From a bacterium (GTDB taxonomy: Bacteria > Patescibacteriota > Microgenomatia > JAMCZE01): DNA of 64,000 nucleotides. Location of the stretch: positions 132,135 through 196,134 of the forward strand of contig JAKBJL010000003.1 of assembly GCA_021836035.1 (NCBI GenBank), read 5' to 3'. The notes beneath the pieces are model-generated. The model had not been told where the DNA came from. It searched no databases and saw only the letters and a program-made list of their open reading frames with translations. Of the stretch, positions 3,672 to 52,536 are shown piece after piece. Numbering within the stretch: the stretch's first letter is position 1; each line of letters opens with the position of its first letter. A program made the position numbers and the translations under genes.

Positions 3672-3680
3672 TCGTTTTAA

Positions 3681-3850
3681 TTCAAGGATCCCGCCAGCCA
3701 CCCATCCCCGAAAAGCTAGCTTCGCCATCATGACGATTTTTTACAAATGTTTTTCTTTTTTTATTTTCTTTATTCTGTTTATTTAAAAAGGGGGGCTATG
3801 CCTATGCTTTTGGGGTCCCCGGTGGCTGTCACCCTTTTAAAATAAACGAG
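3681..3850 (+). repeat. intergenic inverted-repeat element, copy C (AAGGATCCCGCCAGCCACCCATCCCC … GGGGTCCCCGGTGGCTGTCACCCTTTTAAAA)
   Basis: Same architecture and arm sequences as the elements at 5241, 7169, 20151 and 51285. Confidence 0.4.
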
Positions 3851-4035
3851 TAATAACAAAACGAATAAAAAATATCCGCCAAAGGCGTTATCTAGAGACT
3901 GACCAGCCGCGGGCTGAGATCAGCCTTGGGTTGAAAAAACAAAAAATGAAAAACAAAAAATAATCTTGGAGTATTGTCTTTAGCAGGTAGAAATGGTAAA
4001 ATTTGCATCAATTATGGCTTTTATTAAGGCAAAAC

Positions 4036-5230: not shown

Positions 5231-5240
5231 TATTATAATT

Positions 5241-5402
5241 TAAGGGTCCTGGCAACCCGCAGCCCCAAAACACTATTTCGCCCATACGTCTGATTTGTAT
5301 CTTGTTTCTTGTATCTTGGTAATTTAATTCTGGTCGGGCGAAAGAAGAGGGGGCTCATTCGTGTTTGGGGCTCCCCGCGGGTTACCGCCCTTACTAAAAA
5401 CC
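5241..5402 (+). repeat. intergenic inverted-repeat element, copy A (TAAGGGTCCTGGCAACCCGCAGCCCC … GGGGCTCCCCGCGGGTTACCGCCCTTACTAAAAACC)
   Basis: ~25-bp imperfect inverted repeats flanking ~110 nt; near-identical ends in copy B at 51285..51442; the internal GCGAAAGAAGAGGGGG block is shared. Confidence 0.55.
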
Positions 5403-5488
5403 GTGTAATAATGCATTAATCTAATTCTTGTGCTTTTTCCTTCCATAAGGTAACTTGGTAGAGTAAAATATATAAACTGAGGAAAAGC

Positions 5489-7168: not shown

Positions 7169-7320
7169 TTAAAGGATTTGGGATCCCGACAGCTGTTTTC
7201 CCCGGAAATGCATCTTGCCATAAGGCGGTTTTAAAACGGATCATTCTTGTTTCTAATTTTATGAAAAGAAGATGGCAAGCTGCGCTTTCCCGGGGACCCT
7301 GCTAGCTGCCACTCCTTAAC
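7169..7320 (+). repeat. intergenic inverted-repeat element, copy E
   Basis: GGGATCCCGACAGCTGTTTTCCCCGG … GGCAAGCTGCGCTTTCCCGGGGACCCTGCTAGCTGCCACTCCTTAA; shares the GGCAAGCTGCGC block with copy D. Confidence 0.35.
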
Positions 7321-7379
7321 AATTTTGTAGGTATTTTTGTATATTGGGAATTAATATATAAATCGGATATAATTTTCCC

Positions 7380-8621
7380 GTGATAATTAAACTGAGAACA
7401 ATAAGAAACCTAGCGGTTATCCTTGCTCTTCTGGTTCTTGCCGGTGGAGTAGGCTATAACTTGGGGCAGAGGGATGTCAAAGTCCGTTGGAAAAATTTAC
7501 CCCAGGTAGAGATAACCAATAAGTTGCCGCCTTCTAACCGGGATGTTGACTTTTCGCTTTTTTGGGATGTCTGGAGCAGGGTGGAAAGCAGTTATGTGGA
7601 CAAGTCTAAACTGCAGCCGCAAACCATGGTTTACGGGGCAATTTCCGGGATGGTTTCTTCTCTGGGCGATCCCTATACGGTTTTTCTCCCGCCGCAGGAA
7701 AATAAAGAGAGCAAAGAGGAACTGAACGGCAGTTTTGAGGGAATTGGCGCCCAACTGGGAATTAAGGAGAACAAGATTGTAGTAGTAGCCCCGGTTTCCG
7801 GGATGCCGGCAGAGGCAGCGGGGATTAAAGCCGGTGATTGGATCGTTAAAGTTGACGGTAAAGAAACCGCCAACTGGACTTTACCCGAAGCGGTAAACAA
7901 CATCCGTGGAACGAAGGGAACCGAAGTTACTCTGACTATTCTGCATCCCGGCCAGACAAAAACGACCGATGTCAAAGTGGTCAGAAATACCATTGTTATC
8001 AAATCAATTGAATGGCAAGTCAAGGAAGCCTCCGGTTCAGCTAAGGAGATAGTCTATCTGCGCCTGAGCCGTTTCGGCGATACTACTAATACGGAGTTTG
8101 ATACCGCAGTCACGGAGATTACCGAGAAGATGCAATCTGACAGCAATATCCGGGGACTGGTTTTGGATTTGCGTAACAATCCGGGCGGTTATCTTAATGG
8201 CGCGGTCTATGTTGCCAGCGAATTTCTCAAAGACGGGGAGGTGGTCAAGCAAGCAAACGGCGACGGAACTTCCCAGACTTTTACGGTTAACCGGCAAGGC
8301 AAGCTAACTCAGGTACCCATGGTGGTGTTGATCAACCAGGGCAGCGCTAGTGCTTCCGAGATTGTCGCTGGAGCTCTACAAGCGCGGGGAAGAGCAAAAC
8401 TAATTGGTACGCAAAGTTTCGGCAAAGGGAGTGTCCAGGAAGCCCAGGATTTACCCGGTGGAGCGGGACTGCACGTGACGATTTCCAAATGGTTGCTACC
8501 TGACGGGCGCTGGATTAATGGCAGTGGCTTGACACCAGATGATAAAATAGAACAGGACGAAAACGATCCGACGCGGGATTTACAGCTGGAAAAAGCGATC
8601 GAAATTCTAACCGCCGGATAA
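7380..8621 (+). CDS. ctpA: carboxyl-terminal processing protease (peptidase S41) with PDZ domain
   Basis: N-terminal TM segment, PDZ (GIKAGDWIVKVDG), S41 catalytic region (GLVLDLRNNPGGYL…GSASASEIVAGALQ). Confidence 0.85.
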   Translation: MIIKLRTIRNLAVILALLVLAGGVGYNLGQRDVKVRWKNLPQVEITNKLPPSNRDVDFSLFWDVWSRVESSYVDKSKLQPQTMVYGAISGMVSSLGDPYTVFLPPQENKESKEELNGSFEGIGAQLGIKENKIVVVAPVSGMPAEAAGIKAGDWIVKVDGKETANWTLPEAVNNIRGTKGTEVTLTILHPGQTKTTDVKVVRNTIVIKSIEWQVKEASGSAKEIVYLRLSRFGDTTNTEFDTAVTEITEKMQSDSNIRGLVLDLRNNPGGYLNGAVYVASEFLKDGEVVKQANGDGTSQTFTVNRQGKLTQVPMVVLINQGSASASEIVAGALQARGRAKLIGTQSFGKGSVQEAQDLPGGAGLHVTISKWLLPDGRWINGSGLTPDDKIEQDENDPTRDLQLEKAIEILTAG

Positions 8622-8627
8622 TTTATT

Positions 8628-9818
8628 ATGGGCAAAAAATTTTTAACAGCCATCGGTATTCTGGTAATTTTGATTTTACTCGGCATTGGCTCCGGGACCT
8701 TAGGAGTCAAGACCGACAAACTTAATTTTACTCTTCCGCAGATTGCCAATACCCTCCGTATTACCGGACCGAATACCGGACCTGTTCCGGCGGGTCAATC
8801 AACCACGAAAGTAGTTTCGGAAGAATCGGTGACTATTGATGTGGTTAAAAAAGTCTCGCCGGCGGTAGTTACCGTCGGAATTACGACTGCGCAATCTAAT
8901 CTCGGCAACCAGAATTTCGGTTTCGGCCCATTCGGCTTTTTCCAATCACCGGCTCCCCAAAACCAACAGCCGGTTAGCCAGAATATCGGCTCCGGTTTTA
9001 TTATTAAAAGCGACGGGCTGATCATTACCAACAAACATGTTGTATCAGATACTACGGCTAAATACCGGATAGTAACCGCCGATAATAAAACTTATGATGT
9101 CCAAAAAATTTATCGTGATCCAAACAATGATCTGGCAATTTTAAAAATTAACGCCACCGGCTTACCCTCGGTAGAGCTGGGCGATAGCAGTAGTCTACAG
9201 GTAGGGCAATTTGCTATAGCAATCGGGACAGCTTTGGGAGAGTTTCGTAGTACTGTTACTACCGGAGTTATTTCGGGAATAGGCAGGAGTATTACGGCCG
9301 GAGCCCCTTTCCAGGGAAGTGAGCAGTTAAATAACATTATCCAAACTTCGGCGGCGATTAATCCGGGGAATTCCGGGGGACCTTTACTTAACAGCTCGGG
9401 GCAGGTTATCGGGGTGAATGTGGCGACCGCATCGGACGCCCAGAATATCGGTTTTGCTTTACCGATCAATACCGTTAAGGATTCAATTAATATTTTCGAA
9501 ACCACCGGGTCTTTTCCTCAGAAGGCGTATCTCGGAGTTCAATACAGCATGGTCAGCCGGAATTTAGCGGTTATTAACGATATTCCCGAAGGAGCTTATA
9601 TCCAGAATGTCGTTACCGACAGCCCAGCGGATAAAGCAGGAGTCCATGACGGAGATATCATTACCAAAATTGACGGGCAAAATATCCGTGATACCAACGG
9701 GGGATTATCAGCGGTAATCAACAAGAAAAAGCCCGGGGATTCGGTAGAATTAACCATTTACCGGGATACTAATGAAACCATCACGATTAAAGTAACCCTC
9801 TCTGAATCGCCCTCTTAG
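8628..9818 (+). CDS. htrA: HtrA/DegP-family trypsin-like serine protease with C-terminal PDZ
   Basis: GSGFIIKSDGLIITNKHVV (His), NDLAILK (Asp), NPGNSGGPLLNSSGQVIGVN (Ser), PDZ at C-terminus. Confidence 0.85.
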   Translation: MGKKFLTAIGILVILILLGIGSGTLGVKTDKLNFTLPQIANTLRITGPNTGPVPAGQSTTKVVSEESVTIDVVKKVSPAVVTVGITTAQSNLGNQNFGFGPFGFFQSPAPQNQQPVSQNIGSGFIIKSDGLIITNKHVVSDTTAKYRIVTADNKTYDVQKIYRDPNNDLAILKINATGLPSVELGDSSSLQVGQFAIAIGTALGEFRSTVTTGVISGIGRSITAGAPFQGSEQLNNIIQTSAAINPGNSGGPLLNSSGQVIGVNVATASDAQNIGFALPINTVKDSINIFETTGSFPQKAYLGVQYSMVSRNLAVINDIPEGAYIQNVVTDSPADKAGVHDGDIITKIDGQNIRDTNGGLSAVINKKKPGDSVELTIYRDTNETITIKVTLSESPS

Positions 9819-11198: not shown

Positions 11199-11367
11199 AT
11201 TGTGCCTATTATACTATATTAGTGAGCTAAAATCACTAATAAATTTAAATTTAATATTTTTAATGAGTATCCGCCTACGACAGGATCTGAAATAACAAAT
11301 AGTTTTTCAGAAAGAGGCAAAATGCCCCTTCATTTCAAATCCGATCTGAGCGGATTAAAATTAAAAA

Positions 11368-12276
11368 TTACAAATTAAATATTTTGTGTAGCGGGTGCCA
11401 GGGAATGCGGCGCTCCGCGATTAGAATGCCAAAGAAAACCAGAGCACTGCCGGTTAGGAAGGGAACGGTTAGTTGTTCCCCCAGTAGGGGTATGGCGATA
11501 GCAACTGCGGTAATAGGATCAAGGTAGGTAAAGACGCCGGTTTTATAAGCAGGAAGTTTGGAGAGAGCCCAATCATAAGCGGCATAAGCGATGGCGCTGG
11601 AAAAGACGCTGCCGAAAATAATACCGGTCCAGCCGCGGTAGTCTAAAGCGGCGATCCATCCAGGAGAGGACTCAAATTCCCAAATCATAAACGGCAAAAA
11701 GGTGAGGGTGCCAATGAGAAACGACCAGAAAGTCGAGCCCAGGGTATTTTCATTGGTCAGGAATTTACGCCCGGCAATGGTGCTTACGACATAACCTAAA
11801 GTAGCAATAATCAGAAAAAAGTTGCCGATAATTTCTCCCTGAGGACCGTTTTGCAGAATTGGCTGGAAAACAATAATAAAAATCCCGGTAAATGAGAGCA
11901 AAGTTCCCGCTAGGGCGGATTTTTTAATCCTTTCCCGCAGGAAAAGCGCGGAGCCGATAAGGAGTATAACCGGGCCGGCAGAAGCAATAATCGGGGAATT
12001 AATCGAAGCCGTTCTTTCCAGCCCCAGGAAGAAAAAAGTGATGTTTATAGTAATTCCGGAAAAAGCGAAAAGCCAAAGCCAGCGGTTTTTCAATTGGCCG
12101 TAGGTTAACTCTTTATGGACAATGGGGTAAAGGAGGCAGGAGGCGATAAGGAAGCGGATGAAGGCGAGCGAAAAAGGGGGGATGTTACCTAGAGCGAATT
12201 TAAAGATCGGGCTGGCTGCTCCCCAGATCAAATTGGCGATTATCAGAGCAAGGATGGGCAGATTGAGCTTTTTCAT
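11368..12276 (-). CDS. EamA/DMT-family transporter
   Basis: ~10 TM segments with two EamA-like repeats; 302 aa. Confidence 0.7.
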   Translation of the reverse strand: MKKLNLPILALIIANLIWGAASPIFKFALGNIPPFSLAFIRFLIASCLLYPIVHKELTYGQLKNRWLWLFAFSGITINITFFFLGLERTASINSPIIASAGPVILLIGSALFLRERIKKSALAGTLLSFTGIFIIVFQPILQNGPQGEIIGNFFLIIATLGYVVSTIAGRKFLTNENTLGSTFWSFLIGTLTFLPFMIWEFESSPGWIAALDYRGWTGIIFGSVFSSAIAYAAYDWALSKLPAYKTGVFTYLDPITAVAIAIPLLGEQLTVPFLTGSALVFFGILIAERRIPWHPLHKIFNL

Positions 12277-14879: not shown

Positions 14880-15040
14880 TTTAGTTTAGTGCGCTGCTTC
14901 GCAGATCCAAAAAACCTCGCTGGCCGTGGTTCATGCTCGACTTTTTGTCCGCTCGCATCGCTTTAATATATGTCGCGTAACTACGCCCAGTGGGTTGCCA
15001 CCTTTCTAAAATATTTGTAAATACTAATAGAAATTAGGAA

Positions 15041-18022: not shown

Positions 18023-18679
18023 ATGGATATTACCTATTTGGGACACGCCAGTTTCAAAATTAAAGGAAAAAGTGCCAGCGTAGTCACGGACCCGTTTGAT
18101 CCCAAAGTTGTTGGCTTTACTCCTCCCGCACCGGAGAATGTGGACCTGGTTACCGTCAGCCATGACCATGCAGATCATAATTTTGTTTCCCGGGTTAAAG
18201 AAAAGAATCCGGACGCTTTTGTTATTAGCGGTCCGGGTGAGTATGAGGCTAGGGGAGTGACGGTTTTCGGTTACGGAGCGTTCCATGATAAAAGTAATGG
18301 GGCAGAAAGAGGTAAAAATACTATTTTCCGGATTGTCCTTGATGATATTAATGTTTGTCACCTGGGGGATCTGGGGCATAAATTAAGCGATGCCTTAGTG
18401 GAAAAAATCGATAATGTAGATATTTTAATGGTTCCTGTTGGCGGCGGGTTTTCTTTGGAACCGGAGGTCGCAGCGGAAGTTGTTGCCCAGCTGGCCCCCA
18501 GTATTGTTATCCCCATGCATTATAAAACACCCAAACATAATCCTGAAGTATTTGCCAAATTGGCCGGGGTAGCAGAATTTTTAAAGGCCATGGGTAAAGA
18601 AAATATATCACCGATACCAAAATTGAGCGTTTCTAAGGATAAATTACCAGAAGAGTTGCAAGTAGTAGTCTTAGAATAA
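18023..18679 (+). CDS. MBL-fold metal-dependent hydrolase (UPF0173-like)
   Basis: VSHDHADHNF metal-binding motif; 218 aa. Confidence 0.75.
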   Translation: MDITYLGHASFKIKGKSASVVTDPFDPKVVGFTPPAPENVDLVTVSHDHADHNFVSRVKEKNPDAFVISGPGEYEARGVTVFGYGAFHDKSNGAERGKNTIFRIVLDDINVCHLGDLGHKLSDALVEKIDNVDILMVPVGGGFSLEPEVAAEVVAQLAPSIVIPMHYKTPKHNPEVFAKLAGVAEFLKAMGKENISPIPKLSVSKDKLPEELQVVVLE

Positions 18680-18800
18680 CTTGGGATCCCACCGCCGCTC
18701 GTGTTCATTCCGTGTACTACGTGCACGCTAATGAGCGCTCGCTTTGCTGGGCAAGCCTGCCACACCAGCCTTATTAGCGTGACCCTGATAAAATAAAATT

Positions 18801-20135
18801 ATGAGCCAGACAAAGGTTCCTCCCCATTCCGACGATGCCGAGCAATCCGTTCTTGGGGCAATTATGATCGACCGGGACGCGATTGTAGAAGTGGCCGGCT
18901 TTTTACGCCCTGAACATTTTTATAATGACCCCAACGGAAATATATTTTCCGCGATGTTATCACTTTTTGAAGAACGCCACCCCATAGATTTGGTAACCCT
19001 GAAGGAAAAGCTACGGGAGCAGAAATGTCTAAAGGAGGTCGGAGGAGCGGGGTATCTTTCGGATTTGGTTAACAAAGTGCCGACAAGCGCTCATGTGGAA
19101 CAATATGGCCGGATTATCAAAGAACATTATGCTAAAAGGCAGCTGATCAAAACTGCGGCCGACGTAACGGAGGATTCTTTCGACGAGGGGAAGCCCCTCC
19201 GCGATCTTTTGGATAAGGCGGAGCAACGGATTTTTGCCATTTCGCAGGAAAGCTTGCAACGCAATTTCGTGCCTCTCAAAGACGCGCTGGCGGAAAGTTT
19301 TGACCGCTTGGATGAGTTGCAGAAAAAAGGCAGCAGCGGTTTGCGTGGTGTACCTACGGGTTTTCGGGAGTTGGACAATATCTTAGCTGGCATGCAAGAT
19401 AGCAATTTATTAATTTTGGCTGCCCGCCCGGGAATCGGGAAAACAGCGATTGTTTTAAATATCGCTGCTCACGCCGCGGTCCGGGATAAACTGCCGGTGG
19501 GAATGTTCTCTCTGGAGATGAGCCAGGAAGAATTAGTGGATCGCCTGCTGGTAGCCCAGGCGGATATTGACGCTTGGAAACTGAAGACCGGCCATTTGGA
19601 GGATGAGGATTTTGACAAATTGCAGGAAGCGATGGGGCAGCTTGCCGAAGCGCCGATTTTTATTGATGATACTCCGGGTATCAATATTATGGAAATGCGG
19701 ACCAAAGCGCGGCGGTTACAGGCCGAACACGGACTAAAACTACTGGTGGTTGATTATCTTCAACTTATCGATTCCGGAAGGCATTTTGATAACCGAGTAC
19801 AGGAAGTTAGCATTATTTCCCAGGCTTTAAAAAATATGGCCCGGGAATTAAAAATTCCCGTACTGGCAGTTTCCCAACTATCCCGTGCGGTCGAAGCTCG
19901 GGGAACAAAAGTACCGCAGTTGGCGGACCTGCGTGAGAGCGGAAGTATTGAACAGGACGCGGATGTAGTGATGTTCCTTTACCGTGCCGACGATGAAATC
20001 AAAGACATGAATAAAATTAATACTAAACTGTTGCTGGCTAAACACCGCAACGGCGCCCTGGGAGAATTTGAGATGATGTTTGTCGGCCCCAAACTCCGCT
20101 TCCACCCCCTGGAAAGCAAAAGAGAGAAAGAGTAA
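18801..20135 (+). CDS. dnaB: replicative DNA helicase DnaB
   Basis: DnaB N-terminal domain (QSVLGAIM…), Walker A ARPGIGKTA, RecA-like C-domain (VVDYLQLI, SQLSR). Confidence 0.9.
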   Translation: MSQTKVPPHSDDAEQSVLGAIMIDRDAIVEVAGFLRPEHFYNDPNGNIFSAMLSLFEERHPIDLVTLKEKLREQKCLKEVGGAGYLSDLVNKVPTSAHVEQYGRIIKEHYAKRQLIKTAADVTEDSFDEGKPLRDLLDKAEQRIFAISQESLQRNFVPLKDALAESFDRLDELQKKGSSGLRGVPTGFRELDNILAGMQDSNLLILAARPGIGKTAIVLNIAAHAAVRDKLPVGMFSLEMSQEELVDRLLVAQADIDAWKLKTGHLEDEDFDKLQEAMGQLAEAPIFIDDTPGINIMEMRTKARRLQAEHGLKLLVVDYLQLIDSGRHFDNRVQEVSIISQALKNMARELKIPVLAVSQLSRAVEARGTKVPQLADLRESGSIEQDADVVMFLYRADDEIKDMNKINTKLLLAKHRNGALGEFEMMFVGPKLRFHPLESKREKE

Positions 20136-20150
20136 TTTGGTTTATCTTAA

Positions 20151-20300
20151 TTTAGGGTTCTGGTAACCGCTTTTCCCGGAAAGACATCCTGCCGCGCGGC
20201 AGTTTTAAAGGTTTCTATATTTTTTACTTTTTCCTGATTTTATAAAAAGAGGGGGGCAAGCTGCGCCTATCCGGGTCCTCTGCGATTGCCACACAATTAA
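20151..20300 (+). repeat. intergenic inverted-repeat element, copy D
   Basis: TAGGGTTCTGGTAACCGC … AAAAAGAGGGGGGCAAGCTGCGCCTATCCGGGTCCTCTGCGATTGCCAC. Confidence 0.35.
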
Positions 20301-20380
20301 AGTATTTGTAAATATTTGTATATTACGAATTTGTATATTATTCAAATAAATTTTCCCCTGAACCTGATAAAATACTGTTA

Positions 20381-22213
20381 ATGACCAAGAAAGCAATTAC
20401 TGAGGAACTGCGGGAAATGATTTTCGCGGCGGTCAGAAAAGAATTCCCCGAGGCGGAAATAAAACCGGAGGATATTTTGCTGGAACATCCGGCATCCGAA
20501 GAGCACGGTGATTATGCGACAAATATTGCTTTAAAGCTTAAAGCAAATAGCAAATGGCTACTGGCTCAAAGTCCTTTGGAGGTTGCGGAACGGTTGGTTA
20601 ACAGAATAGCAGAACAGAAGGATAGCAGGATAAAAAAGATTGAAACCGCAGGACCGGGGTTTATTAATTTTAAACTTTCTCCGGAATGGCAATGGGAACA
20701 GGTGAAAGAAATAATACTGGCGGAAGAAAATTACGGAAAATCACCCGACAAACAGAAAAAAATTGTCATTGAGTTGGTCAGCCCGAATATTAATAAGCCG
20801 CTGCATGTTGGACATCTCAGAAACGCAGCGCTGGGAATGAGTTTAGCCGCGTTATATCAAGCAAGTGGTTGGAAAGTTGTCAGGGATGAAATTAACAACG
20901 ATCGGGGACTGCATATCATGAAAGCCGCATATGGTTATTTGCTTTACGGCCGGAAAAATCCGGCAAAACAAAACGGCTGGCGGGATCTGCTGGGAGCCTG
21001 GGTTGCTCAGCCGGGACTGTGGAAAACACCGGTCGATGAAGGCCTGAAACCGGATTATTTTGTCGGTAATTATTATGTCTTAGGCGAAAAGTTTCTTAAC
21101 GAGAATATAAAGTTTGCCGGAGAGCAGCTAGCGGAAATGCTCCAGGCTTGGGAAGCCGAGGACAAAGAAATACGGCGGTTGTGGAAAGTACTAGGAGATT
21201 GGGTACACGAGGGTATCGATCAAACCTATAAACGCCTGGGGGTTAGGCATGAAAAAAGATGGTATGAGAGTTTACTTTACCAGGAAGGCAAAAAGGTTAT
21301 TCTTGAGGGATTAGAAAATGGCGTCTTCGAAAAATTGCCCGACGGGGCAATCCGGGCAAATCTGGAAAAATACGGCCTGCCGAATAAGATCCTTATCCGC
21401 AGCGACGGAACAGCAATCTATATGACCTTTGATATTGCCCTTACCAAACATAAGGTAGAGGAATATATCGCCGATAAATATGTTTGGGTTGTGGGCAGCG
21501 ACCAAATAGACCACTTTAAAAGATTATTTGTGATTTTTGAAATGTTGGGTTTAGGAAAAAGGGAAAATTTTTTCCATCTGGCATACGGCATGGTCCGGGT
21601 TCCGGGAGGAAAAATGAGCAGCCGGCTGGGAAATGTTGTCCTGGCAGATGATCTATTGGATAAGGTAAAAGAGATGACTATAAAATTAATGGCCGAGAGG
21701 AAAATCGGGGGTGAACTTTCGGAAGAAGAAAAAGAGAAAGCAGCGGAAGCCGTTAGCATCGGAGCGGTTAAATATACCATATTAAAGGTTGATCCGCTGC
21801 TAAATCTGGTTTTTGATTTGGAAAAGAGCATCTCGTTGGAGGGGGACTCGGGACCATATCTACAATATGCGTATACCAGGGCTAAGAGTGTATTGAGAAA
21901 ATCCCAAATACCAAATACCAATTCCCAAATCCCAAGGGGAGATATTTCTAACGAAGAACAATCTATCCTGCGTTATCTATACCGTTATCCGGAGGTTGTG
22001 GAAGTAGCAGCAAAAAACTATAATCCCAGCATAATCTGCAATTATCTCTTTAGTCTTGCCCAGCGGTTTAATAGTTTTTATAATAATCAGCCGATATTGA
22101 ACCCGGGAAATGAGAGTTTGTCAGACCGGAGGTTGCAGCTGACGGAAGCTACAGCGATAATTTTAAAATCGGGACTGAATATGCTAGGAATTGAAGCTAT
22201 GGAGAAAATGTAA
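20381..22213 (+). CDS. argS: arginyl-tRNA synthetase
   Basis: Class I HIGH (PLHVGHLRNAALG), ArgRS N-domain, DALR anticodon-binding C-terminus ending …IEAMEKM; low-complexity insert (SQIPNTNSQIP). Confidence 0.9.
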   Translation: MTKKAITEELREMIFAAVRKEFPEAEIKPEDILLEHPASEEHGDYATNIALKLKANSKWLLAQSPLEVAERLVNRIAEQKDSRIKKIETAGPGFINFKLSPEWQWEQVKEIILAEENYGKSPDKQKKIVIELVSPNINKPLHVGHLRNAALGMSLAALYQASGWKVVRDEINNDRGLHIMKAAYGYLLYGRKNPAKQNGWRDLLGAWVAQPGLWKTPVDEGLKPDYFVGNYYVLGEKFLNENIKFAGEQLAEMLQAWEAEDKEIRRLWKVLGDWVHEGIDQTYKRLGVRHEKRWYESLLYQEGKKVILEGLENGVFEKLPDGAIRANLEKYGLPNKILIRSDGTAIYMTFDIALTKHKVEEYIADKYVWVVGSDQIDHFKRLFVIFEMLGLGKRENFFHLAYGMVRVPGGKMSSRLGNVVLADDLLDKVKEMTIKLMAERKIGGELSEEEKEKAAEAVSIGAVKYTILKVDPLLNLVFDLEKSISLEGDSGPYLQYAYTRAKSVLRKSQIPNTNSQIPRGDISNEEQSILRYLYRYPEVVEVAAKNYNPSIICNYLFSLAQRFNSFYNNQPILNPGNESLSDRRLQLTEATAIILKSGLNMLGIEAMEKM

Positions 22214-25959: not shown

Positions 25960-26313
25960 ATGGACGATTCAGTCGTCGAAAAAGATCCACAAAAACCTAG
26001 CGGCTTTAATGTTCCGCCGGACTCGACGCTAACTTTCCAGGAGGCTATAAAAAGAGGGGAATATGATCCAAAATTTCTGGAAGGGTTCGCCATTTGGCAC
26101 ACTTTGAGCCGCGATGTTCAATTTGAATATATTCGCGAAGCCTTAAAAAATCGTGAGAAGCAATATGTTGTCCAGTTTGCAGAAATCAATAATGTTCTGG
26201 ATTTTAGTAAGAAACCGCAGTTACAACAAGTCCTTAACAATATTCAACAAAAAATTCAAAAACTTCGGGAAGAAAAGGAAAGATTGTATATTGAATACAC
26301 TAAACCGGAATAA
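25960..26313 (+). CDS. hypothetical protein
   Basis: 117 aa, charged and helical (…LREEKERLYIEYTKPE). Confidence 0.45.
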   Translation: MDDSVVEKDPQKPSGFNVPPDSTLTFQEAIKRGEYDPKFLEGFAIWHTLSRDVQFEYIREALKNREKQYVVQFAEINNVLDFSKKPQLQQVLNNIQQKIQKLREEKERLYIEYTKPE

Positions 26314-26340
26314 ATATAATGATGAAATTATCGCCCCGAT

Positions 26341-27301
26341 TTAAATTCCCCGTTTTTCTCTTGTAATGACATCCAGCAAATGGTTAGGTTCGTATAATGA
26401 TCTTGCGTTGTAAAGGCATTTATTTACCAATGGTTTAGACATGTGACATTCAAGTTGAGAAATTACCCTGGTAATACCTTCCAGCTGCTTAACGTATGCT
26501 CCTGGCGACCCAAACGCTTCCTGGTATTTACCATAGAGATCACCTGATAGAGTATGTTTGATGTTGTCAAGCTTATCGTAGATTGTGTTTGTGCTGGTTT
26601 CTTCGCGGGTAATTTTCCCTGATCCGTCCCTCTGGACTGTTTTGGTGGTATAAATATTTGGTACGTAAGTGTCACGGTAATAGGCAGCAAATTCTTCGAG
26701 AACCGCTTCTTTTGGACCACGGTTGTCTCGATTGGGGTCAAGAGTATGGCCGACTTCATGGAGCATGTCCGCATCCAGATTACCCGTAAATATCAAAGTC
26801 AAATCTTTTGTCAGGGGATCTTTATCCAACACGTCACCACTTATCGTAACCCCATTTGATCCGCTGTGGCCGGCCAGTTTCTTATAGAGTTTTTTGGTAA
26901 TCAGCTAAGTCCATACTAAAATAAGGTCGGGCGAAAGAATAGCCATATTGATCGGCCAAAGCCTTTACATCCGGTGAGTTAGACACAACCTTTAATCCAT
27001 CCAGGCCATCTTGGGCTATCTCTTCACCTGGCTGTTCACGTAGATTATTGAATAATTTTACCGGCCATGGTTTAAGAGGGTCTTCTTTTTGCATATTTTC
27101 CAGCTCTTGTTGAAAACGATGATAATGCTCCTCTTTTTCCTGATTAATAACCAAGGGTCCCCTAAAGCGGTCGACGACGGGATCAGAGATCTTTAGTTCG
27201 CTATTTGTTGGCTTTAGGGCATGGGAGAGATCTAGTGATCCGTCAGGGCTTACTTTTGCCCCGATAATTAATCCCAAATCAGCATTCCCGTCTGCTGGCA
27301 T
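26341..27301 (-). pseudogene. HExxH zinc-metallopeptidase-like gene split into two frames (26882..27301 then 26341..26832)
   Basis: Downstream part carries DADMLHEVGHTLDP; the two ORFs are 49 nt apart, same strand, offset by one frame. Confidence 0.35.
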
Positions 27302-27423
27302 ATGTTAACCAAAACACCTTTTATCCTGGGCCGGAGCCATCTGAGCCTACAGACGTCGTCTGGCGAAGCTGAATAAAAACCTATCTCAAGGCTCTATCCC
27401 AAATTTGTGCCTGATTTCTTGAA

Positions 27424-27460
27424 GCTCTGGATGGAAGGTACCGAACCTTTTACGCACAAA
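27424..27460 (+). repeat. recombinase-like 3-prime-end remnant repeat R1 (degenerate: GC--TCTGGATGGAAGGTACCGAACCTTTTACGCACAAA)
   Basis: Aligns to R2-R5. Confidence 0.6.
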
Positions 27461-28147
27461 TTATTCCAGGCAACTATTTTTTGTTGGTCCCCGGCGAAAA
27501 CGATCCAGGAAAATTGTCTGTGAAATATCAATTGAATCTCGATAAAGACCCATTTTAAAATAAACTAAATTTTGTGTGTAATCAAAACCAAGTGGACCAT
27601 GATAACTGGCTAATATTTCGTTGTTGATCCAGACATCAACAAACCCGTCTAATGATTCGTTGAGTTGGTAATTAACCAAGACATCATGCCAAATACCGCG
27701 TGGATCTTTTGTCCAAAAGTATTTTTTCATTAATTGCTTCCTGCCCATTATGCAAAATTGCAACTGTCCGTTAATATAGCGAAATGAAAGAAAAGGTGAT
27801 TGTTTTTCTTCCTGGTAAAATTGTTTCCATTGTGCGAAAAGTAAACGATTATCAACGATAGGGAAATTGGTGGGGAAGTAAAACGAAAAAGCATACCAAA
27901 TGCCAGAATTTAAAGGTACTAAAATATCTTGTTTTTCCGAAAATTCTGCCCTTTCGGTGGGTTTATTATCTCGACCAATATCTGGTTTATCTCCGGTGCG
28001 AAGAGTTATTTTTAAGCTAGACTTTCCGTTCCGGGCTTGTTCTTCTGAAATTTCCCAAGAATGTTGTTCAACCCTTTTGAGCCACCAAATATTCCCATCT
28101 ATCTTACCTTCAAAATCGTCTTTTAATATTAAATCTTGGGCCGCCAC
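27461..28147 (-). CDS. ConA-like lectin/glucanase-fold protein, possibly a polysaccharide lyase (PF14099-like)
   Basis: 228 aa, W/F/Y-rich beta-sandwich-like sequence (…GIWYAFSFYFPTNFP…LLFAQWKQ…). Confidence 0.3.
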   Translation of the reverse strand: MAAQDLILKDDFEGKIDGNIWWLKRVEQHSWEISEEQARNGKSSLKITLRTGDKPDIGRDNKPTERAEFSEKQDILVPLNSGIWYAFSFYFPTNFPIVDNRLLFAQWKQFYQEEKQSPFLSFRYINGQLQFCIMGRKQLMKKYFWTKDPRGIWHDVLVNYQLNESLDGFVDVWINNEILASYHGPLGFDYTQNLVYFKMGLYRDSIDISQTIFLDRFRRGPTKNSCLE

Positions 28148-28230
28148 AAATTTATTGTAACAGAAGGTTCTTCCATTCAGCCATGAGATACTTTGGTATA
28201 GAAGCTAGGTAAGAATTTCTTCAGAAGAGT

Positions 28231-28295
28231 TTAGTGAACTATGTTTGCAACTACTACCGGGAAAATTATTCCAAGTACTAATGGTTACTATTGCG
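28231..28295 (+). repeat. second-type remnant repeat (≈80 % identical to 42997..43062, the 3-prime end of ORF 42709..43068)
   Basis: …TTTAGTGAACTATGTTTGCAACTACTACCGGGAAAATTATTCCAAGTACTAATGGTTACT… versus …CTTGGTGAACTACGTCAGCAACTTCTACCGGGAAAACTGTTCCAGTTACCAATGGTTACT…; the local copy carries a stop. Confidence 0.55.
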
Positions 28296-28362
28296 GGAGA
28301 ATAGTTAAAAAGCTGTCAAAATCATAAACTATGTTAGCTATGTTAGAATTGATTAAGATTCA

Positions 28363-28987
28363 ATGGCCAAGCTAGTTTCAACTAATCCCTCCAAAAATTT
28401 CGAAAAAATTGGTGAAGTCGATATTTCTTCTGAAAATGAGATTGCCGGAAAGGTTAAGAAGGCAAGGGAAGTCCAGAAGAGCTGGGGAAGTTTATCCGTA
28501 AAAGAACGGGTAATATACCTGCAAAAGGTATATGACCTTTTTGAAAAGCACCGGGAGGAACTTGGAAAGCTTGTTGGTGACGAAATTGGGATGCCATTGT
28601 CTGTGAGGGATTCTATGGAAATCGGAGCCGGTCAAGATTACTTCAAATGGTATTTGGAGAATGCGGAAAAATCTCTGTCACCGGAAATAACTCATGAAGA
28701 CGAAACCTCGCAAAGTAAGGTTTACTATGAACCTACTGGTGTCGCTGCTGTAATATCCCCCTGGAATTTTCCTTGGATTGGGAGGCTATCTTTTTACAGA
28801 GGATAAAATGTCAGCCAGGAGAGAAGCCTCAAAGATAAAGACGGGGATGATCGGGATTAATAACACAACTTACCTTCATCCGGCTAATCCATGGGGAGGA
28901 TATAAGAAATCAGGGCTGGGAAGGGGGAATGGAAAGTTTGGTCTTCGAGGGGTATCACAAATAAAGGTTGTTACTCTTGAAAAATAA
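28363..28987 (+). pseudogene. aldehyde dehydrogenase remnant: N-terminal ~147 aa joined out of frame to C-terminal ~60 aa; catalytic core (~270 codons) deleted
   Basis: N-fragment ends with the ALDH motif VYYEPTGVAAVISPWNFPW; C-fragment has GINNTTYLHPANPWGGYKKSGLGRGNG (the PFGG-K-SG-GRE region); the Cys/Glu catalytic region is absent. Confidence 0.75.
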
Positions 28988-29133
28988 TAAGCAAGGTGGG
29001 AGGAAAACACCTTCGGTTAGCTCCGCCAAGGCGAAGTCGAACAAACGCGAGTTGATAAATCAGCTCGCTTCGTTCGTCCTGTGAACTCGCTTGAAACAAA
29101 ATATCCCGAGACAAATGCCCGGGAATTTTGTTT

Positions 29134-29174
29134 GCAGCCCTGGATGGAAGACATTCGAACCTTTTACGCACAAA
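29134..29174 (+). repeat. recombinase-like 3-prime-end remnant repeat R2 (GCAGCCCTGGATGGAAGACATTCGAACCTTTTACGCACAAA)
   Basis: Encodes …REFCLQPWMEDIRTFYAQN… in an otherwise unannotated open frame (29021..29209). Confidence 0.65.
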
Positions 29175-29183
29175 ATGCTCTTT

Positions 29184-30356
29184 TTATTTGGAAAGGCTGG
29201 GTTGGTTAAGAAGGTAATACATTACACTGTAAACTTGGGTTATTCCTTCTGACCGCCAAGTGTTTAGTTTGCTTTTTGTCGTAGTATTTGTTCTTCGTTC
29301 TGCCAGAAAAACTAGTGTTTTTCCTATAAAAGTCTCAGCTTTTACCGGAACTCTCAAACCATAATAATTCTCAGTTTTTCCTTGGCCGCTAAGAAAATCA
29401 CCCACTCTTGCGTTGTTCATAGCAAAAATATTTCCAATTCTAGAATAGACTCGAGGGCCAAGACCCATAAAATCTACACCGTTGTTCATAAGTTTTCTTT
29501 GTGGTGCGTCCTTTTCTCTGCTAAAACCATAGGTACCTGTTTGGTTATATCCACATGTAACTAAATAATTTCTGGCCATGTCGTACATTTGATGCCGTTC
29601 ATGTAATCCCGGCCGACGCATCACTCCTTGGTTTATGAGATTCCTGCTTCTGGCGCCATAAGCATTGACATATTGAAACAAGGTAATTTCAGGCGGGTTT
29701 ACTTCTTCGACAACTCTAATTAAAGTATTTTCTAAACTTTGTTGTGTTTGATTCGGGGTACCAAACATGAGATCAATGTTGTAGGGTACACCGATTTGAT
29801 TTAAATTTTGAAGAATCTGAACTTCCTGTTGTGCCGAGGTAATATTCCGATCAAGACCCTGCCTTTCTTGATCTGATAAATTTTGAACTCCCAGGCTTAA
29901 TCTGCTTACCCCTAAGGCTAAAAGTCCCAATACATGATTTTCGGTAGCGTTTTTGGGGTGTAGTTCGAAAGTTATTCGGGCACCGTTGGTTTCCACATTT
30001 TGGCGAACATTAGCTAGAAGTTGATCGGCTTGACCTAGGGTTAAAAGTCCGGATGTCCCGCCTCCAAAGTAAACCGAAGTTATTTTTCCCCGGCCGACTT
30101 GTGGTAGGACAGTATCAAGGTGTTTTGAAAACGGTCCGATGTACCCTTCAATTTTTTCGGGACTGGCGGTTGTTCGGTGGAAGGCACAAAAAGAACAAAC
30201 TTGTTCACAAAACGGAATGTGGACATATAAAGCCAATCCTTTGCCAGCAGAGCGTCCAACCTCTCTTTGTTGGTTCATTTCTGCCAATCTAATTGGTTTT
30301 AGCCTGCCTTTAATAGTTTCACCTGCTAGCATGTGTAGCGCGTATTCACAATCCAT
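29184..30356 (-). CDS. radical SAM protein, HemW/HemN family (oxygen-independent coproporphyrinogen-III-oxidase-like)
   Basis: CEQVCSFCAF (CxxxCxxC), VYFGGGTSG (the GGGTP motif of HemN), 390 aa. Confidence 0.75.
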   Translation of the reverse strand: MDCEYALHMLAGETIKGRLKPIRLAEMNQQREVGRSAGKGLALYVHIPFCEQVCSFCAFHRTTASPEKIEGYIGPFSKHLDTVLPQVGRGKITSVYFGGGTSGLLTLGQADQLLANVRQNVETNGARITFELHPKNATENHVLGLLALGVSRLSLGVQNLSDQERQGLDRNITSAQQEVQILQNLNQIGVPYNIDLMFGTPNQTQQSLENTLIRVVEEVNPPEITLFQYVNAYGARSRNLINQGVMRRPGLHERHQMYDMARNYLVTCGYNQTGTYGFSREKDAPQRKLMNNGVDFMGLGPRVYSRIGNIFAMNNARVGDFLSGQGKTENYYGLRVPVKAETFIGKTLVFLAERRTNTTTKSKLNTWRSEGITQVYSVMYYLLNQPSLSK

Positions 30357-30392
30357 AAGTGCTTTATATACAAATAATGCTAAAATTGATAT

Positions 30393-31172
30393 ATGGGTGC
30401 TTTGACAGTAGCTTCACTAAACACTTTTGGAGGAGTGGTTGATATTTACAATTTGGCCCTTCGTTATAAAGCCATTGCTGATTACTTTAACTCTTCTACG
30501 GTGGATGTTATTCAGTTCCAAGAGGTTTTTACCTATTTGCATTTAGCATTATTTAAATATTTTTTGTCGGGGTATCAATATTGTCAGTTTCAAGCATCAT
30601 ATATGGGGCCGAAGGGTGGGCTAGTAACATTTTCTCGACACCAATTGATAAAACACCGTCATATTAACTACTCCCGTCACTTTGTCCCTTATTTAGGAAA
30701 GTCCATAATTGAGCTTTTTACCCAACGAGGGTTGTTGATAACTGAAATTAAGGGTTTTAGTGTGGCCTTAATTAACACCCATTTGACGGCGGTTCTTAAC
30801 GCCGATTGGAGCCAAAAAAGTAAATATTACAAAGAGCTAAGTTCTGAAATTAACGAATTTCACCAGTTGGTTAACGATGAGTCACTTAATAAAATCGGAA
30901 TTGCGACCGGGGACTTTAATACTGCCAAGGGTAGTGATTTATTTTGGCAGTTGATAAGTTGTCCAAGGCTAAATGATCCGTTCGAAAAAGATGAGCTTCC
31001 TACCCGGCATCAATGTTTTGCTGCCCTTGGTCGTAAAACCAATTGTGTTGATTATATTTTTGTTTTTGGTGATAAATCGCTGTACAAAGTTAAAGAAAAT
31101 AAGCGTATTTTTACGGAAAGGCCTTATGCTTCTGACCACATTGGACTTCAAATTTCTTTAACTCTTTCCTGA
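30393..31172 (+). CDS. endonuclease/exonuclease/phosphatase (EEP) family protein
   Basis: ASLNTFGG…VIQFQEV, TGDFNT, SDHIGL: the catalytic E, GDFN and SDH motifs of the EEP superfamily. Confidence 0.7.
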   Translation: MGALTVASLNTFGGVVDIYNLALRYKAIADYFNSSTVDVIQFQEVFTYLHLALFKYFLSGYQYCQFQASYMGPKGGLVTFSRHQLIKHRHINYSRHFVPYLGKSIIELFTQRGLLITEIKGFSVALINTHLTAVLNADWSQKSKYYKELSSEINEFHQLVNDESLNKIGIATGDFNTAKGSDLFWQLISCPRLNDPFEKDELPTRHQCFAALGRKTNCVDYIFVFGDKSLYKVKENKRIFTERPYASDHIGLQISLTLS

Positions 31173-31948
31173 GCTTGTTCGTATAACAAATAATCTTTTT
31201 CGTGAAACTGTTGAAACCGTCGTAGGAAATCGTGTTCATATGTTGGGGAAGATTGACGAAATTGTGGGGTGCGGTTTAGCCACTTAACTTGGTGTCGACC
31301 CATCTCTTTTCTCGAAACAAAACCGCTATTTTGCAGACAGCGGATCAATTTTTGAGCAAAGGCGTCGAGTTCGTTTGTGACTCCAACCACAGCAAAAGCA
31401 TGGAGGTCTTTTCCGCCTAATGCTTGGGTTTGATAATTTTGAAGTTGGGGCAATAAAGCGTAATCTTCAAAAGTTAATGCCGAATCGAACGGTATTCTTA
31501 CCCGCCATTCAGTGATACCTTTTGTTCTTTGCCAATGAGTATATTGCGATTCCATTCTTTCTAAAGGGTCACGGATGACAACGGCAGAGATAGGGTTGGT
31601 AATCAGTTGGTCAAAGCGATTTGCAGCAAAATGGCCGTGAATTGCGGCGAAATTGTCGGGTAAATTTGTGACCTGGATAACTTTAGGTTTTAGTACCCCA
31701 TCGATAAGTACTTGGTAAGCTTTATTTATAAGGGGAGCAAGGGGGGTGTTAGCAATTCTTAACCGGAGAGCATCGTGCACCCGATTTGTTCGTTGAACTT
31801 TAAGATCGGCGGACCTAGTTAATGTATCCCGAATAGGGTCGTATATGAGTACTCTGTTTTTTCCTAAAACCGACTCTAACAAATCTTGGATTGATGTCCC
31901 GGCAGTTTTTTCAATATGGACGCTTAATACGCGACTTTCAACTGGCAT
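31148..31948 (-). CDS. sulfotransferase-family protein
   Basis: VHIEKTAGTSI (5-prime-PSB H-x-P-K-T-G-G-T-like) and VVIRDPLERMES (RDP motif). Confidence 0.6.
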   Translation of the reverse strand: MPVESRVLSVHIEKTAGTSIQDLLESVLGKNRVLIYDPIRDTLTRSADLKVQRTNRVHDALRLRIANTPLAPLINKAYQVLIDGVLKPKVIQVTNLPDNFAAIHGHFAANRFDQLITNPISAVVIRDPLERMESQYTHWQRTKGITEWRVRIPFDSALTFEDYALLPQLQNYQTQALGGKDLHAFAVVGVTNELDAFAQKLIRCLQNSGFVSRKEMGRHQVKWLNRTPQFRQSSPTYEHDFLRRFQQFHEKDYLLYEQAQERVKEI

Positions 31949-31981
31949 ATAAATATCCTATAATATGAATTATATATCAAT

Positions 31982-32650
31982 ATGCCTGAGAATCAAAATG
32001 ATAAGTACCTTTGTTTACCACGAAGAAGCCCTCAAGAATGGCTAAGGGGAAAATTCCATGTAGATACAGAAAATATTCCCCGGCTTGTTTATCCTTTGGC
32101 TAAATTTATCCACGAAGAAAAACCGGATTATGTTTTAGCCATCGACTCCGGTGCACGAATTACTGGTCTTGCGTTATTTGCTTTTTACCACGAACTATAT
32201 GGAGAGTTACCTACAAAAGACCACCGGATTCACTTTCGTAAGATTTCCCATAGTTTTCCGGCGGAGGTGGTAAGGCGTCAACTGAAACCAGATATTTGCG
32301 AAGTAATGTCTTCAAGTGAATCACCGTTGTTATTTGTTGTTGATGATTGCGTCAATACAGGAACAACAACGCTGATGTTGCGATTATTAGTTTCTGAATT
32401 ATCTGAGGGAAAAGTCCGGCTTAAAATTGGAGTAATGCGAGAGTTTTTGGCCGGAGTAACAGATGTAAGGGGTGATACTTTTAGTCTTGCCAGAGCCACA
32501 TGGCGAAACAACTCGCAATTGATTGGAGTGGAATATACTGACAAGATTATCCCGCATGTTATGCGAACAGCCGAGGCCGCCAATTTAAGAAGAGAAATAT
32601 TTACCAATGTCAGAGGCTTTGCGTCCAAAATAAAAAGCAGGCAAATATGA
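31982..32650 (+). CDS. phosphoribosyltransferase-domain protein (type I PRTase)
   Basis: PRPP-binding loop LLFVVDDCVNTGTT. Confidence 0.6.
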   Translation: MPENQNDKYLCLPRRSPQEWLRGKFHVDTENIPRLVYPLAKFIHEEKPDYVLAIDSGARITGLALFAFYHELYGELPTKDHRIHFRKISHSFPAEVVRRQLKPDICEVMSSSESPLLFVVDDCVNTGTTTLMLRLLVSELSEGKVRLKIGVMREFLAGVTDVRGDTFSLARATWRNNSQLIGVEYTDKIIPHVMRTAEAANLRREIFTNVRGFASKIKSRQI

Positions 32651-34743: not shown

Positions 34744-34746
34744 AAT

Positions 34747-35951: not shown

Positions 35952-35963
35952 TATACTTATAGC

Positions 35964-51272: not shown

Positions 51273-51284
51273 ATTATTTTAACT

Positions 51285-51442
51285 TAAGGGTCCTAGCAAC
51301 CAGCAGCCCCATTCAAGCTATTTTGTTCATACGAACAGCTTGGTCACTTTCTTTTTAGATGAAGGCCTTCTCTTCTTGCGAAAGAAGGGGGGTTCATCCG
51401 CTTAACGGGGCTCCCCGCCTGTTGCCACCCTTTCTAAAACCA
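51285..51442 (+). repeat. intergenic inverted-repeat element, copy B, immediately upstream of efp
   Basis: TAAGGGTCCTAGCAACCAGCAGCCCC … GCGAAAGAAGGGGGG … GGGGCTCCCCGCCTGTTGCCACCCTTTCTAAAACC; closest match to copy A. Confidence 0.55.
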
Positions 51443-52026: not shown

Positions 52027-52077
52027 ATTATTAGAATTTAGGTTACCTGCGGTTGACACCCTCGTAAAACTAAGGAA

Positions 52078-52536
52078 TTATTTCAATAACCAAAAGAGAA
52101 AAATGGCCAGAACTATCAGCTGGGTTATTACACCCCAGGGGGCTTGCGCCCGGGAATCATAGAAAAGATCATGCGCCCAATGTTGACTTCGGTATACCCA
52201 GGTGAAGGGAGGGAAATGCCACTTAAAGAACATATGCGGGATTTCCAGCCAATCTGGAGATTGAGCTACCAGCGAACCTAGCATAACGTTCAGCGGACTT
52301 TGTTTACCCCAATAGACAAAGAAAAAATAAGCGATAAATAAGCCCAGGAGTGCGTCTATGCCTGCCTCCGTCATGAGACGGAACCGGGACTTGTTTTTAT
52401 AGTTGACCATGGGATCCCAATGGGGAAGTTTATCGCCCAGATAATGGCTAAGCAAAGCTAAGGGTAAGGCGATCCGGAGGTCGGGAATTTTAGTAGCAAT
52501 TACTGCTCCTACGATTGAGTGTGCGGTTGCTGTCAC
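52078..52536 (-). CDS. membrane-bound metal-dependent hydrolase-like protein (YdjM/DUF457-like)
   Basis: Multi-TM with His/Asp-rich loops (SHYLGDKLPHWD…HWAHD). Confidence 0.35.
   Translation of the reverse strand: MTATAHSIVGAVIATKIPDLRIALPLALLSHYLGDKLPHWDPMVNYKNKSRFRLMTEAGIDALLGLFIAYFFFVYWGKQSPLNVMLGSLVAQSPDWLEIPHMFFKWHFPPFTWVYRSQHWAHDLFYDSRAQAPWGVITQLIVLAIFLFWLLK

Follow-up and report, generated by a model that had tools for sequence, protein, structure and literature searches.

A lineage-restricted family of long imperfect palindromes, resembling miniature mobile repeats, at gene junctions of a Microgenomatia bacterium

In this study, we analyzed a 64,000-nt stretch of DNA (referred to below as the window) from a bacterium assigned to Microgenomatia within Patescibacteriota (GenBank assembly GCA_021836035.1, contig JAKBJL010000003.1, positions 132,135 to 196,134 of the forward strand), and focused on a set of intergenic palindromic elements that had previously been pointed out in it from the sequence (the original prediction). 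Five such elements on the + strand, named A, B, C, D, and E, are members of one family, and among the loci searched this family is restricted to the window genome and one sister genome. Our best explanation as a whole, to which we assign a probability of about 0.55, is that the elements are lineage-restricted interspersed palindromes similar to MITEs (transposable elements of the miniature inverted-repeat kind), which would have spread by a copy-and-paste process, form a hairpin at transcript ends, and, in the tail of copy D, supply a promoter. Three candidates had been put forward originally, namely a MITE-like repeat, a structured RNA, and a shared promoter or terminator module. The first of them is best supported, by the restricted distribution of the family and by the empty C, A, and D sites in a related locus (L089), whereas a role of the right arm as a -35 box is unsupported at A, B, C, and E.

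Five copies constitute one family

The sequences proposed by the original prediction were found where it had placed them, and its names for the flanking genes agree with Pfam assignments (ychF, rpsF, rpsR, an S41 peptidase gene corresponding to ctpA, dnaB, argS, a NIF3-like gene, and efp). Copies A and B had been said to share near-identical termini, and a direct-repeat search gave 89% identity over 37 nt at their left ends and 79% over 43 nt at their right ends. In the same search, D and E were 77% identical over 57 nt and shared a further 47-nt stretch downstream, and the right end of A was matched by C.

The more diverged copies proposed near rpsF (C), ctpA (D), and argS (E) were recovered both by leave-out nhmmer searches and by a covariance model. 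In the leave-out searches, profiles were trained on A+B, D+E, or C alone and then scored on the untrained copies. The A+B profile detected C at E = 1.4e-8 and both D and E at E = 0.02; the D+E profile detected C, B, and A (E-values of 1.4e-9, 2e-3, and 8e-3, respectively); and C as the sole query retrieved all four other copies (E <= 4e-5). The untrained copies were the top non-training matches in every such search, and the strand was + every time. A covariance model derived from the copies (R1), which was run on the whole window with filters off, assigned 120-152 bits to the five copies, with the next best hit (15 bits) being the reverse strand of A. Coordinates and individual scores are given in Table 1, together with three possible relics that are discussed later.

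Any two of the five intact copies are 50-78% identical, compared with approximately 47% for shuffled sequence, and the copies fall into the groups (A,B), C, and (D,E). The copies are 157-172 nt long, or about 207 nt in D and E when the tail is included. They are non-coding: inspection revealed that indels disrupt every reading frame between copies and that no frame is conserved between A and B. A small open reading frame (ORF) behind the GAGGGGG motif was considered and rejected, as the 15-codon frame of A is not kept in B.

The original prediction had also raised the worry that the copies might be an assembly artefact of collapsed repeats. This possibility, as well as that of chance similarity, is already refuted and retains next to no probability. 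Although short-read contigs from Logan are interrupted within A and E, the scores are very high and hold up in cross-validation, identical elements are found in unique flanks in independent ENA and Logan assemblies, and copies that differ by 22-50% cannot be collapsed duplicates. The same genome is present in an independent ENA assembly and in two Logan runs, and its flanking proteins are listed in an NCBI record. Direct reading of the Logan contigs revealed the elements there too, with C and D identical to those of the window. As for the contig breaks themselves, the start of one Logan contig of the same organism (L081) and the ends of two others (L084 and L085) fall in the apical regions of A and E (window positions ~5306-5334 and ~20249), with an overlap of ~29 nt at A; repeat- or hairpin-induced coverage breaks, or population heterogeneity of the apical domain, are possible causes.

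Table 1. Positions of the five intact copies and three possible relics in the window
Feature	Position	Strand	Flanking genes	Evidence
Copy A	5233..5402	+	rpsR stop (5230); 221-aa gene (5489)	R1 151.9 bits; fold -57.8 kcal/mol, z = -2.9
Copy B	51277..51442	+	NIF3-like gene stop (51272); efp start (51466)	R1 150.1 bits; fold -52.8 kcal/mol, z = -3.2
Copy C	3675..3846	+	ychF stop (3671); rpsF	R1 143.8 bits
Copy D	7170..7379 (hairpin 7170-7326)	+	ctpA GTG start (7380)	R1 120.7 bits; D/E alignment
Copy E	20144..20358 (hairpin 20144-20306, shared tail to 20358)	+	dnaB stop (20135); argS start (20381)	R1 126.2 bits; tail alignment with D
Possible decayed relic F	14881..15021	+	two minus-strand genes	nhmmer E 0.2-2; fold z = -1.5
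Possible decayed relic G	18676..18776	+	metallo-beta-lactamase-fold gene; dnaB	likeness by eye; weak evidence
Possible mini relic I	52030..52082	+	starts 4 nt past efp stop (52026)	R2 11.3 bits, E = 1.5; nhmmer E ~4; weak evidence

Hairpin architecture and covariation

Each copy folds as one long imperfect hairpin. The two arms, originally described as reverse complements of each other, do pair over approximately 26-50 bp, but only imperfectly and through bulges, of which those on the 5' side (UCCU or UCCC) and on the 3' side (CCCC) are conserved. From the outside inward, the hairpin consists of an A/U-rich extension (UUUUAA.../...UAAAA; ATTAT/GTAAT in A and B), helix P1 (AAGGG/CCCUU), helix P2 inward of the 5' bulge (for example, GGCAACCCGC/GCGGGUUACC), helix P3 inward of the 3' CCCC bulge (AGCCCC/GGGGCU with an A-U extension), and a short GCC/GGC helix that leads to an apical domain of ~70 nt. 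Within the latter, the small hairpin P4 is accompanied by a U-rich stretch and by GAAAGAAGGGGGG, a block of purines. The conserved motifs UCCU, CCCC, GCC..GGC, and GAAAGAAG are unpaired, and RNAalifold predicts a covarying internal hairpin. In copy A, the hairpin core occupies positions 5241-5393, and the outer A/T-rich pairing ATTAT/GTAAT widens the element to ~5231-5412. The TTAA that the original prediction had noticed beside several copies is indeed present (as TTAA or TTTA), but it is part of this A/T-rich extension of the palindrome (TTTTAA...TAAAA, ATTAT...GTAAT). In copy C, 20 nt of the apical U-rich stretch (3748-3767) show 90% complementarity to an A-rich stretch at 3936-3955 just upstream of rpsF; this could be due to chance, both stretches being of low complexity.

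Compensatory changes between the arms, a point raised by the original prediction, are present. Pair-keeping double changes were observed at 11 of 28 modelled pairs in the five copies, compared with 1-4 when the partner columns were slid by 1-3 positions, and none of 500 shuffles reached the observed count. When a shorter copy from the sister species (named H, see below) was added and the arms alone were considered, 11 of 24 pairs showed double changes versus 0-4 in the slid controls. These counts come from five to six sequences, too few for a formal test, and from a structure derived from the same sequences. Arm-to-arm repair in a DNA palindrome could also lead to the same double changes as compensatory evolution.

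These features bear on a rather unlikely alternative, according to which selection maintains the element as a structured RNA acting in cis, be it a 3' untranslated region motif or an intercistronic one, and it was multiplied owing to its usefulness and not to mobility. Its multibranched apical domain (P4, the U-rich linker, a UUCU/AGAA hairpin, and the GAAAGAAGGGGGG block) would then bind a protein or control the fate of the mRNA. Such a role would account for pairing that is kept at 50-78% identity with compensatory changes in all helices, for the conserved unpaired motifs and the covarying internal hairpin, and for the common orientation of the five copies and H with their flanking genes; H, moreover, ends so close to a start codon that it must be transcribed. 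However, minimum free energy and G-U counts show no strand asymmetry, the genes beside the copies have no functional relation to one another (rpsR, efp, ychF/rpsF, ctpA, and dnaB/argS), nearly all relatives are devoid of the element and have overlapping genes instead, H is devoid of the apical domain, and the sample is too small for sound covariation statistics.

Distribution, empty sites, and a sister copy

To examine the distribution of the family, 80 loci of Gottesmanbacteria/Microgenomates (1.18 Mb) were scanned with nhmmer, R1, and an arms-only (core) covariance model (R2), and none of them contained a family match. Nine loci of the closest relatives were scanned in addition; here, L089-L096, including loci around the closest argS homologues, gave no match either, and across ~1.3 Mb of related loci the single exception is the sister copy H described below. 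The window derives from a bacterium of the candidate phyla radiation that is close to Candidatus Gottesmanbacteria, and the best homologues of its ctpA belong to metagenome-assembled genomes of Gottesmanbacteria/Microgenomates with 44-67% amino-acid identity. The extensions on the two sides of the window (7.4 kb and 9 kb, ~16-17 kb of flanking sequence, so that ~81 kb were searched together with the window) contain no further copy. Exact-pattern scans of JGI metagenomes, blastn searches of phage and plasmid collections, and a blastn search in distant mode of 5,426 E. coli genomes were also negative.

The sole homologue found elsewhere is H, a 112-nt sequence (L086:8569-8680) detected by R1 at 27 bits (E = 2.7e-5). 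L086 represents a sister species (67% ctpA identity) and was partly recovered from a run that also yielded the window genome. Of the family features, H retains AAUUUAGGGUCCUG as left motif, helix P3 together with the extension, a GCCC/GGGC helix, and CGCCCUUUUUAG at the right end. The gene that follows A has an orthologue in L086 (41% identity, full length), and H is located upstream of this orthologue; since H ends 10 nt before the next start codon, it must be transcribed.

Orthologous junctions without an element were found in several relatives. In L089, the genes ychF/rpsF/ssb/rpsR/227aa/338aa/ctpA have the same order as in the window and are packed by overlaps or few-base gaps, and the C, A, and D sites (the ychF/rpsF, rpsR/227aa, and 338aa/ctpA junctions, respectively) are empty, the C site because ychF and rpsF overlap there. 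The C and D sites (ychF and ctpA junctions) are also empty in L086, and the D site is empty in L001-L007 as well. A base-level comparison of filled and empty sites is precluded by the divergence of the relatives, which share at most 67% amino-acid identity with the window genome. The argS gene follows dnaB in the window and follows comEA-comEC in five relatives (L091-L095), so that E sits at a breakpoint of synteny.

Two further observations were made at these loci. In L086, rpsF has moved to a position after rpsR. In L096 (67% ctpA identity), which has no family member, the post-rpsR site (8945-9110) carries a different hairpin of ~160 nt that is closed by GTCATTCTGG/CCAGAATGAC and flanked by similarly A/T sequence (TTTTAATTT...AAAAAATA), followed by a second strong hairpin at 9110-9150. 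This suggests that the post-rpsR junction repeatedly acquires or retains long hairpins.

Gene junctions, transcription signals, and orientation

All five copies lie between co-directional genes on the + strand. According to the covariance-model coordinates, they start 3-13 nt past the upstream stop codon; when the outer A/T pairing is counted, A, B, and C start 1 nt past it. The distance from the end of the element to the next start codon varies from 24 to 190 nt, and the right arm is therefore not always just upstream of a start codon. A TAAAAT/TATAAT box ends 6-7 nt before the start codons of efp (51452-51468), argS (20364-20383), dnaB (18784-18803), and ctpA (7368-7382). Two of these boxes have an upstream TG, and a Shine-Dalgarno sequence is present at none of them, which suggests that the mRNAs of these four genes, including ctpA with its GTG start, are leaderless and have their own promoters. 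If so, the upstream transcription units would carry the elements at their 3' ends.

Near the elements, promoter-like matches were found only in the tail of D and at relic I. The tail of D has 58 nt in common with E, contains TTGGGA-18-TATAAT according to a consensus scan, and ends in AATTTTCCC, which abuts the ctpA start codon. Relic I overlaps TTGACA-17-AATTAT with a score of 10/12. The consensus scan did not reveal any promoter with the right arm as the -35 box at A, B, C, or E because the -10 candidates are devoid of the conserved final T. This result bears on the very improbable reading of the element as a mobile promoter module, in which TTGCCA of the right arm serves as the -35 box and, together with an A/T-rich -10 box 16-19 nt downstream, drives the next gene. 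Reading the sequences by eye gives, for A, B, C, E, F, and I, a -35-like hexamer (TTGCCA, TTGACA, CTGTCA, or CTGCCA) and, 16-19 nt further on, TAATAA, TAATCA, TAAATA, or AATTAT; in D, the second position is occupied by TAGGTA. The 10/12 match in relic I and the promoters that Correia elements create at their ends (PMC2649163) point the same way. However, in addition to the negative scan at the four copies, better promoters exist further downstream beside the start codons, and the conservation and pairing of the 5' arm would be left unexplained.

A terminator scanner called no terminator-like site on the + strand at any copy, and such sites are not enriched in the window (32 observed versus 27 expected, and 31 versus 26). 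P4 is followed by a U tract in three copies: U6 in C (mini-hairpin and tract at 3722-3742), U4 in D (7214-7232), and U4 in E, where the mini-hairpin is CUGCC-GCGC-GGCAG (20189-20206). By sequence, this arrangement resembles a weak intrinsic terminator.

The + strand, leading and G-rich over the entire window, carries all five intact copies and all three putative relics, and F keeps this orientation despite its minus-strand neighbours. This single orientation, F included, keeps a DNA-level, replication-oriented mechanism alive. We consider it unlikely that the element is in the first place a hairpin or cruciform formed in single-stranded DNA, serving as the substrate of a recombinase or single-strand transposase (REPIN/RAYT-like, IS200/IS605-derived, or attC-like), with replication setting its orientation. 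The strand bias of all eight sequences, the orientation of F between minus-strand genes, the equal folding of both strands, and the combination of variable sequence with a conserved hairpin and bulged bases, as in attC sites, would fit such a mechanism. On the other hand, no RAYT, Y1 transposase, or integron integrase was found in the window, the arms on inspection agree with neither the attC R-box consensus nor the GTAG head of REP sequences, syntenic housekeeping genes and not cassettes fill the segments from one copy to the next, and F, the sole case that separates the orientation hypotheses, is a doubtful relic.

Comparison with known classes

The family had not been recognised as a known Rfam family, which was confirmed here: the Rfam 15 gathering scan yielded two tRNAs and nothing else, and the more permissive E-value scans, which covered C, A, D, E, and B, gave no credible match and no T-box. 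A T-box had been considered since the arms vaguely resemble AGGGUGGUACCGCG/GGUACCACCCUUU and E precedes argS; it was ruled out, as there is no RF00230 match and no upstream Stem I, and the arms of C and D differ.

Several features of the family are those of MITEs: the elements are non-coding and shorter than ~500 bp, have terminal inverted repeats (arms that pair imperfectly over ~25-45 nt), occur as dispersed copies (five in 64 kb), and show filled and empty orthologous sites. The closest analogues are ERIC, Correia (CREE), and the small repeats of pneumococcus and Bacillus cereus. Correia elements of Neisseria (CREE/NEMIS) are likewise non-coding and gene-adjacent, with a length of ~100-160 bp and inverted repeats of ~26 bp; a TA duplication and an IHF site also characterise them. 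The arms of the present family, which are rich in G+C, bear no visible relation to the Correia repeat. The likeness is presumably one of architecture and function only. The differences are the absence of visible sequence relation and of a demonstrable TA duplication, a far greater divergence (50-78% identity), the few copies in view, and the single orientation. CREE are co-transcribed as hairpins that are bound or cleaved by RNase III, and promoters can arise from them at the element termini (PMC2649163, PMC10969869). In the present family, promoter-like boxes occur at the right end in the D/E tail and relic I.

ERIC/IRU sequences of Enterobacteriaceae and Vibrionaceae are imperfect palindromes of at least ~127 bp in transcribed intergenic regions, and they share with the present family a lineage-dependent copy number and indel variants of the central part. 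When located at the 3' ends of genes, ERIC affects mRNA stability (PMC10969869). Unlike the elements described here, ERIC occurs in both orientations and in another phylum, and the blastn search of the 5,426 E. coli genomes revealed no sequence similarity to ERIC, to REP/BIME, or to other interspersed repeats of E. coli. The pneumococcal SPRITE, RUP, and BOX elements and bcr1 of B. cereus are also small intergenic interspersed repeats with predicted RNA folds. SPRITE bears a terminator-like hairpin (PMC3049150, PMC10969869), and copies C, D, and E of the present family have an internal G+C hairpin with a U tract behind it. There is no homology to any of these repeats, the terminator-like hairpin of the present family is weak and lies inside a larger palindrome, and no insertion sequence (IS) partner is known for it.

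REP/REPIN sequences, which are mobilised by RAYT, resemble the family as extragenic hairpin repeats with conserved pairing and orientation effects. The differences are that the arms of the present family are not short palindromes, that a GTAG head is missing, and that the window showed no RAYT gene. Finally, integron attC sites are also located right after the stop codons of co-directional genes and combine a conserved imperfect hairpin and bulged bases with variable sequence and a single orientation. The R''/R' boxes of attC sites have the consensus RYYYAAC ... GTTRRRY, whereas the arms of the family read GGCAACC...GGTTACC or GTTGCCA and, on inspection, do not fit this consensus. The syntenic housekeeping flanks, which are not cassettes, the irregular spacing, and the lack of an integrase in the window are further differences.

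A MITE-like palindrome as the best explanation

The narrow distribution, the filled and empty sites, the non-coding nature, the inverted-repeat ends, and the subfamily tails together make up a MITE-like signature. Our reading is that the family originated upstream of the 221-aa gene, or at least has its oldest site there, and that it spread by copy-and-paste in the window lineage after the split from the sister species, which has the short copy only. An element situated between a stop codon and the next promoter or ribosome-binding site would probably be transcribed on the end of the upstream mRNA. The long hairpin may then act as a transcript-end structure, whether as a 3' stabiliser, a processing site for a double-strand RNase, or a weak terminator, the last of which would be aided in C, D, and E by the internal G+C hairpin and its U4-6 tract. 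At least in D, the 3' tail would give a promoter to the downstream, apparently leaderless gene, and insertion of an element with such a tail would split a formerly overlapping gene pair into two transcription units. The analogous repeats are co-transcribed, cut or protected by RNase III or RNase E, alter mRNA stability, and create promoters (PMC2649163, PMC10969869, PMC2229807, PMC3184786, PMC3049150).

Several points weigh against this explanation. No transposase, integrase, RAYT, Y1 transposase, or integron integrase was found by Pfam among ~50 ORFs of the window, no autonomous partner was seen, and no longer element or other sequence with the same arms is present in the ~81 kb. A target-site duplication, which had been suggested as something to look for, did not emerge, in that inspection of the flanks showed no consistent direct repeat. 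High similarity between copies, the signature of recent transposition, is absent at 50-78% identity, unlike in a recently active MITE burst. H has no apical domain at all, and it folds no better than shuffled sequence does (z = -0.5). With regard to the transcript-end hairpin, its role at the RNA level is one that we infer; the two strands do not differ in folding energy or G-U counts; and the covariation has the small basis mentioned above. In addition, the main hairpin is followed by CUAAAA with no U tract and is thus not a canonical intrinsic terminator, and P4 with its U4-6 tract falls below the scanner's terminator criteria in C, D, and E, the mini-hairpin being missing from A.

A more elaborate version, which we regard as decidedly unlikely, would treat the element as a self-spreading splitter of operons. 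In this version, a stop-adjacent hairpin, an internal weak terminator, and an outward promoter would form a compact cassette that inserts between overlapping genes of a streamlined genome and turns operons into leaderless units that are transcribed separately. Its spread would require no dedicated transposase and could proceed, for example, through capture of single-strand hairpins at replication forks, a mechanism that would account for the strict orientation on a single strand.

Possible relics and neighbouring features

The original prediction had also listed partial copies at 14885..15025 (F) and 18665..18790 (G). Neither was recovered by a covariance model, while some likeness stood: the right end of F, GGGTTGCCACCTTTCTAAAA, is like that of B with a match of ~20 nt, its left end being TTTTAGTTTAG, and the left end of G, TTGGGATCCCACCGCC, resembles that of D by eye. 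F was recovered by neither R1 nor R2, and G by none of R1, R2, and nhmmer. In G, GGGCAAGC is fused straight to CTGCCACAC, a junction that by its sequence looks like an internal deletion. In the third sequence, I, AATTTAGG is followed by GCGGTTGACACCCTCGTAAAAC, which looks like the left tip joined to the right arm. The filters-off run of R2 split the long copies and is informative only for this weak match. At best, F, G, and I are decayed relics.

A second, unrelated repeat family was observed on the + strand at 29133-29185, 35890-35942, 41409-41461, and 42348-42400. Its core of ~45 nt, GCAGCCCTGGATGGAA.ACATTCGAACC, is 74-83% identical between copies. All copies lie in the 26-44 kb segment of lower G+C content, and most of them coincide with ORF ends or lie past them. 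ARAGORN found no tRNA at any of these copies, which could be leftover conserved 3' ends of genes or recombination sites of an island. The segment itself (26000-44000) has a G+C content of ~0.40, compared with 0.45-0.47 elsewhere in the window, and contains genes for a polysaccharide lyase, a radical SAM protein, a sulfotransferase-like protein, an MFS protein, a zeta-toxin-like kinase, and a 147-aa aldehyde-dehydrogenase fragment, along with numerous genes whose family is unknown; it has the appearance of a variable island or an acquired one. Finally, an A/T-rich inverted repeat with 30-nt arms (73% complementary, 75 nt apart) is located at 11245-11379 in the gap between rpmE and an EamA-family gene on the minus strand, and it is unrelated to the family described here.

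Implications

A literature search found no description of such small repeats in bacteria of the candidate phyla radiation (CPR, or Patescibacteria). Genomes of these bacteria are small and tightly packed, with many overlapping genes. A private family of palindromes that opens gaps of 200-330 nt exactly at gene junctions would mean that even CPR genomes gain selfish or semi-domesticated DNA. The family is a new example of an ordinary small, mobile-looking repeat and not a new kind of system; current ideas are unchanged, and one phylum is added to the hosts of ERIC- or Correia-like elements. In practical terms, the repeats break short-read assemblies of this organism and could serve as strain markers. 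For the organism itself, insertions may rewire operons by providing new transcript ends and new promoters for leaderless genes.

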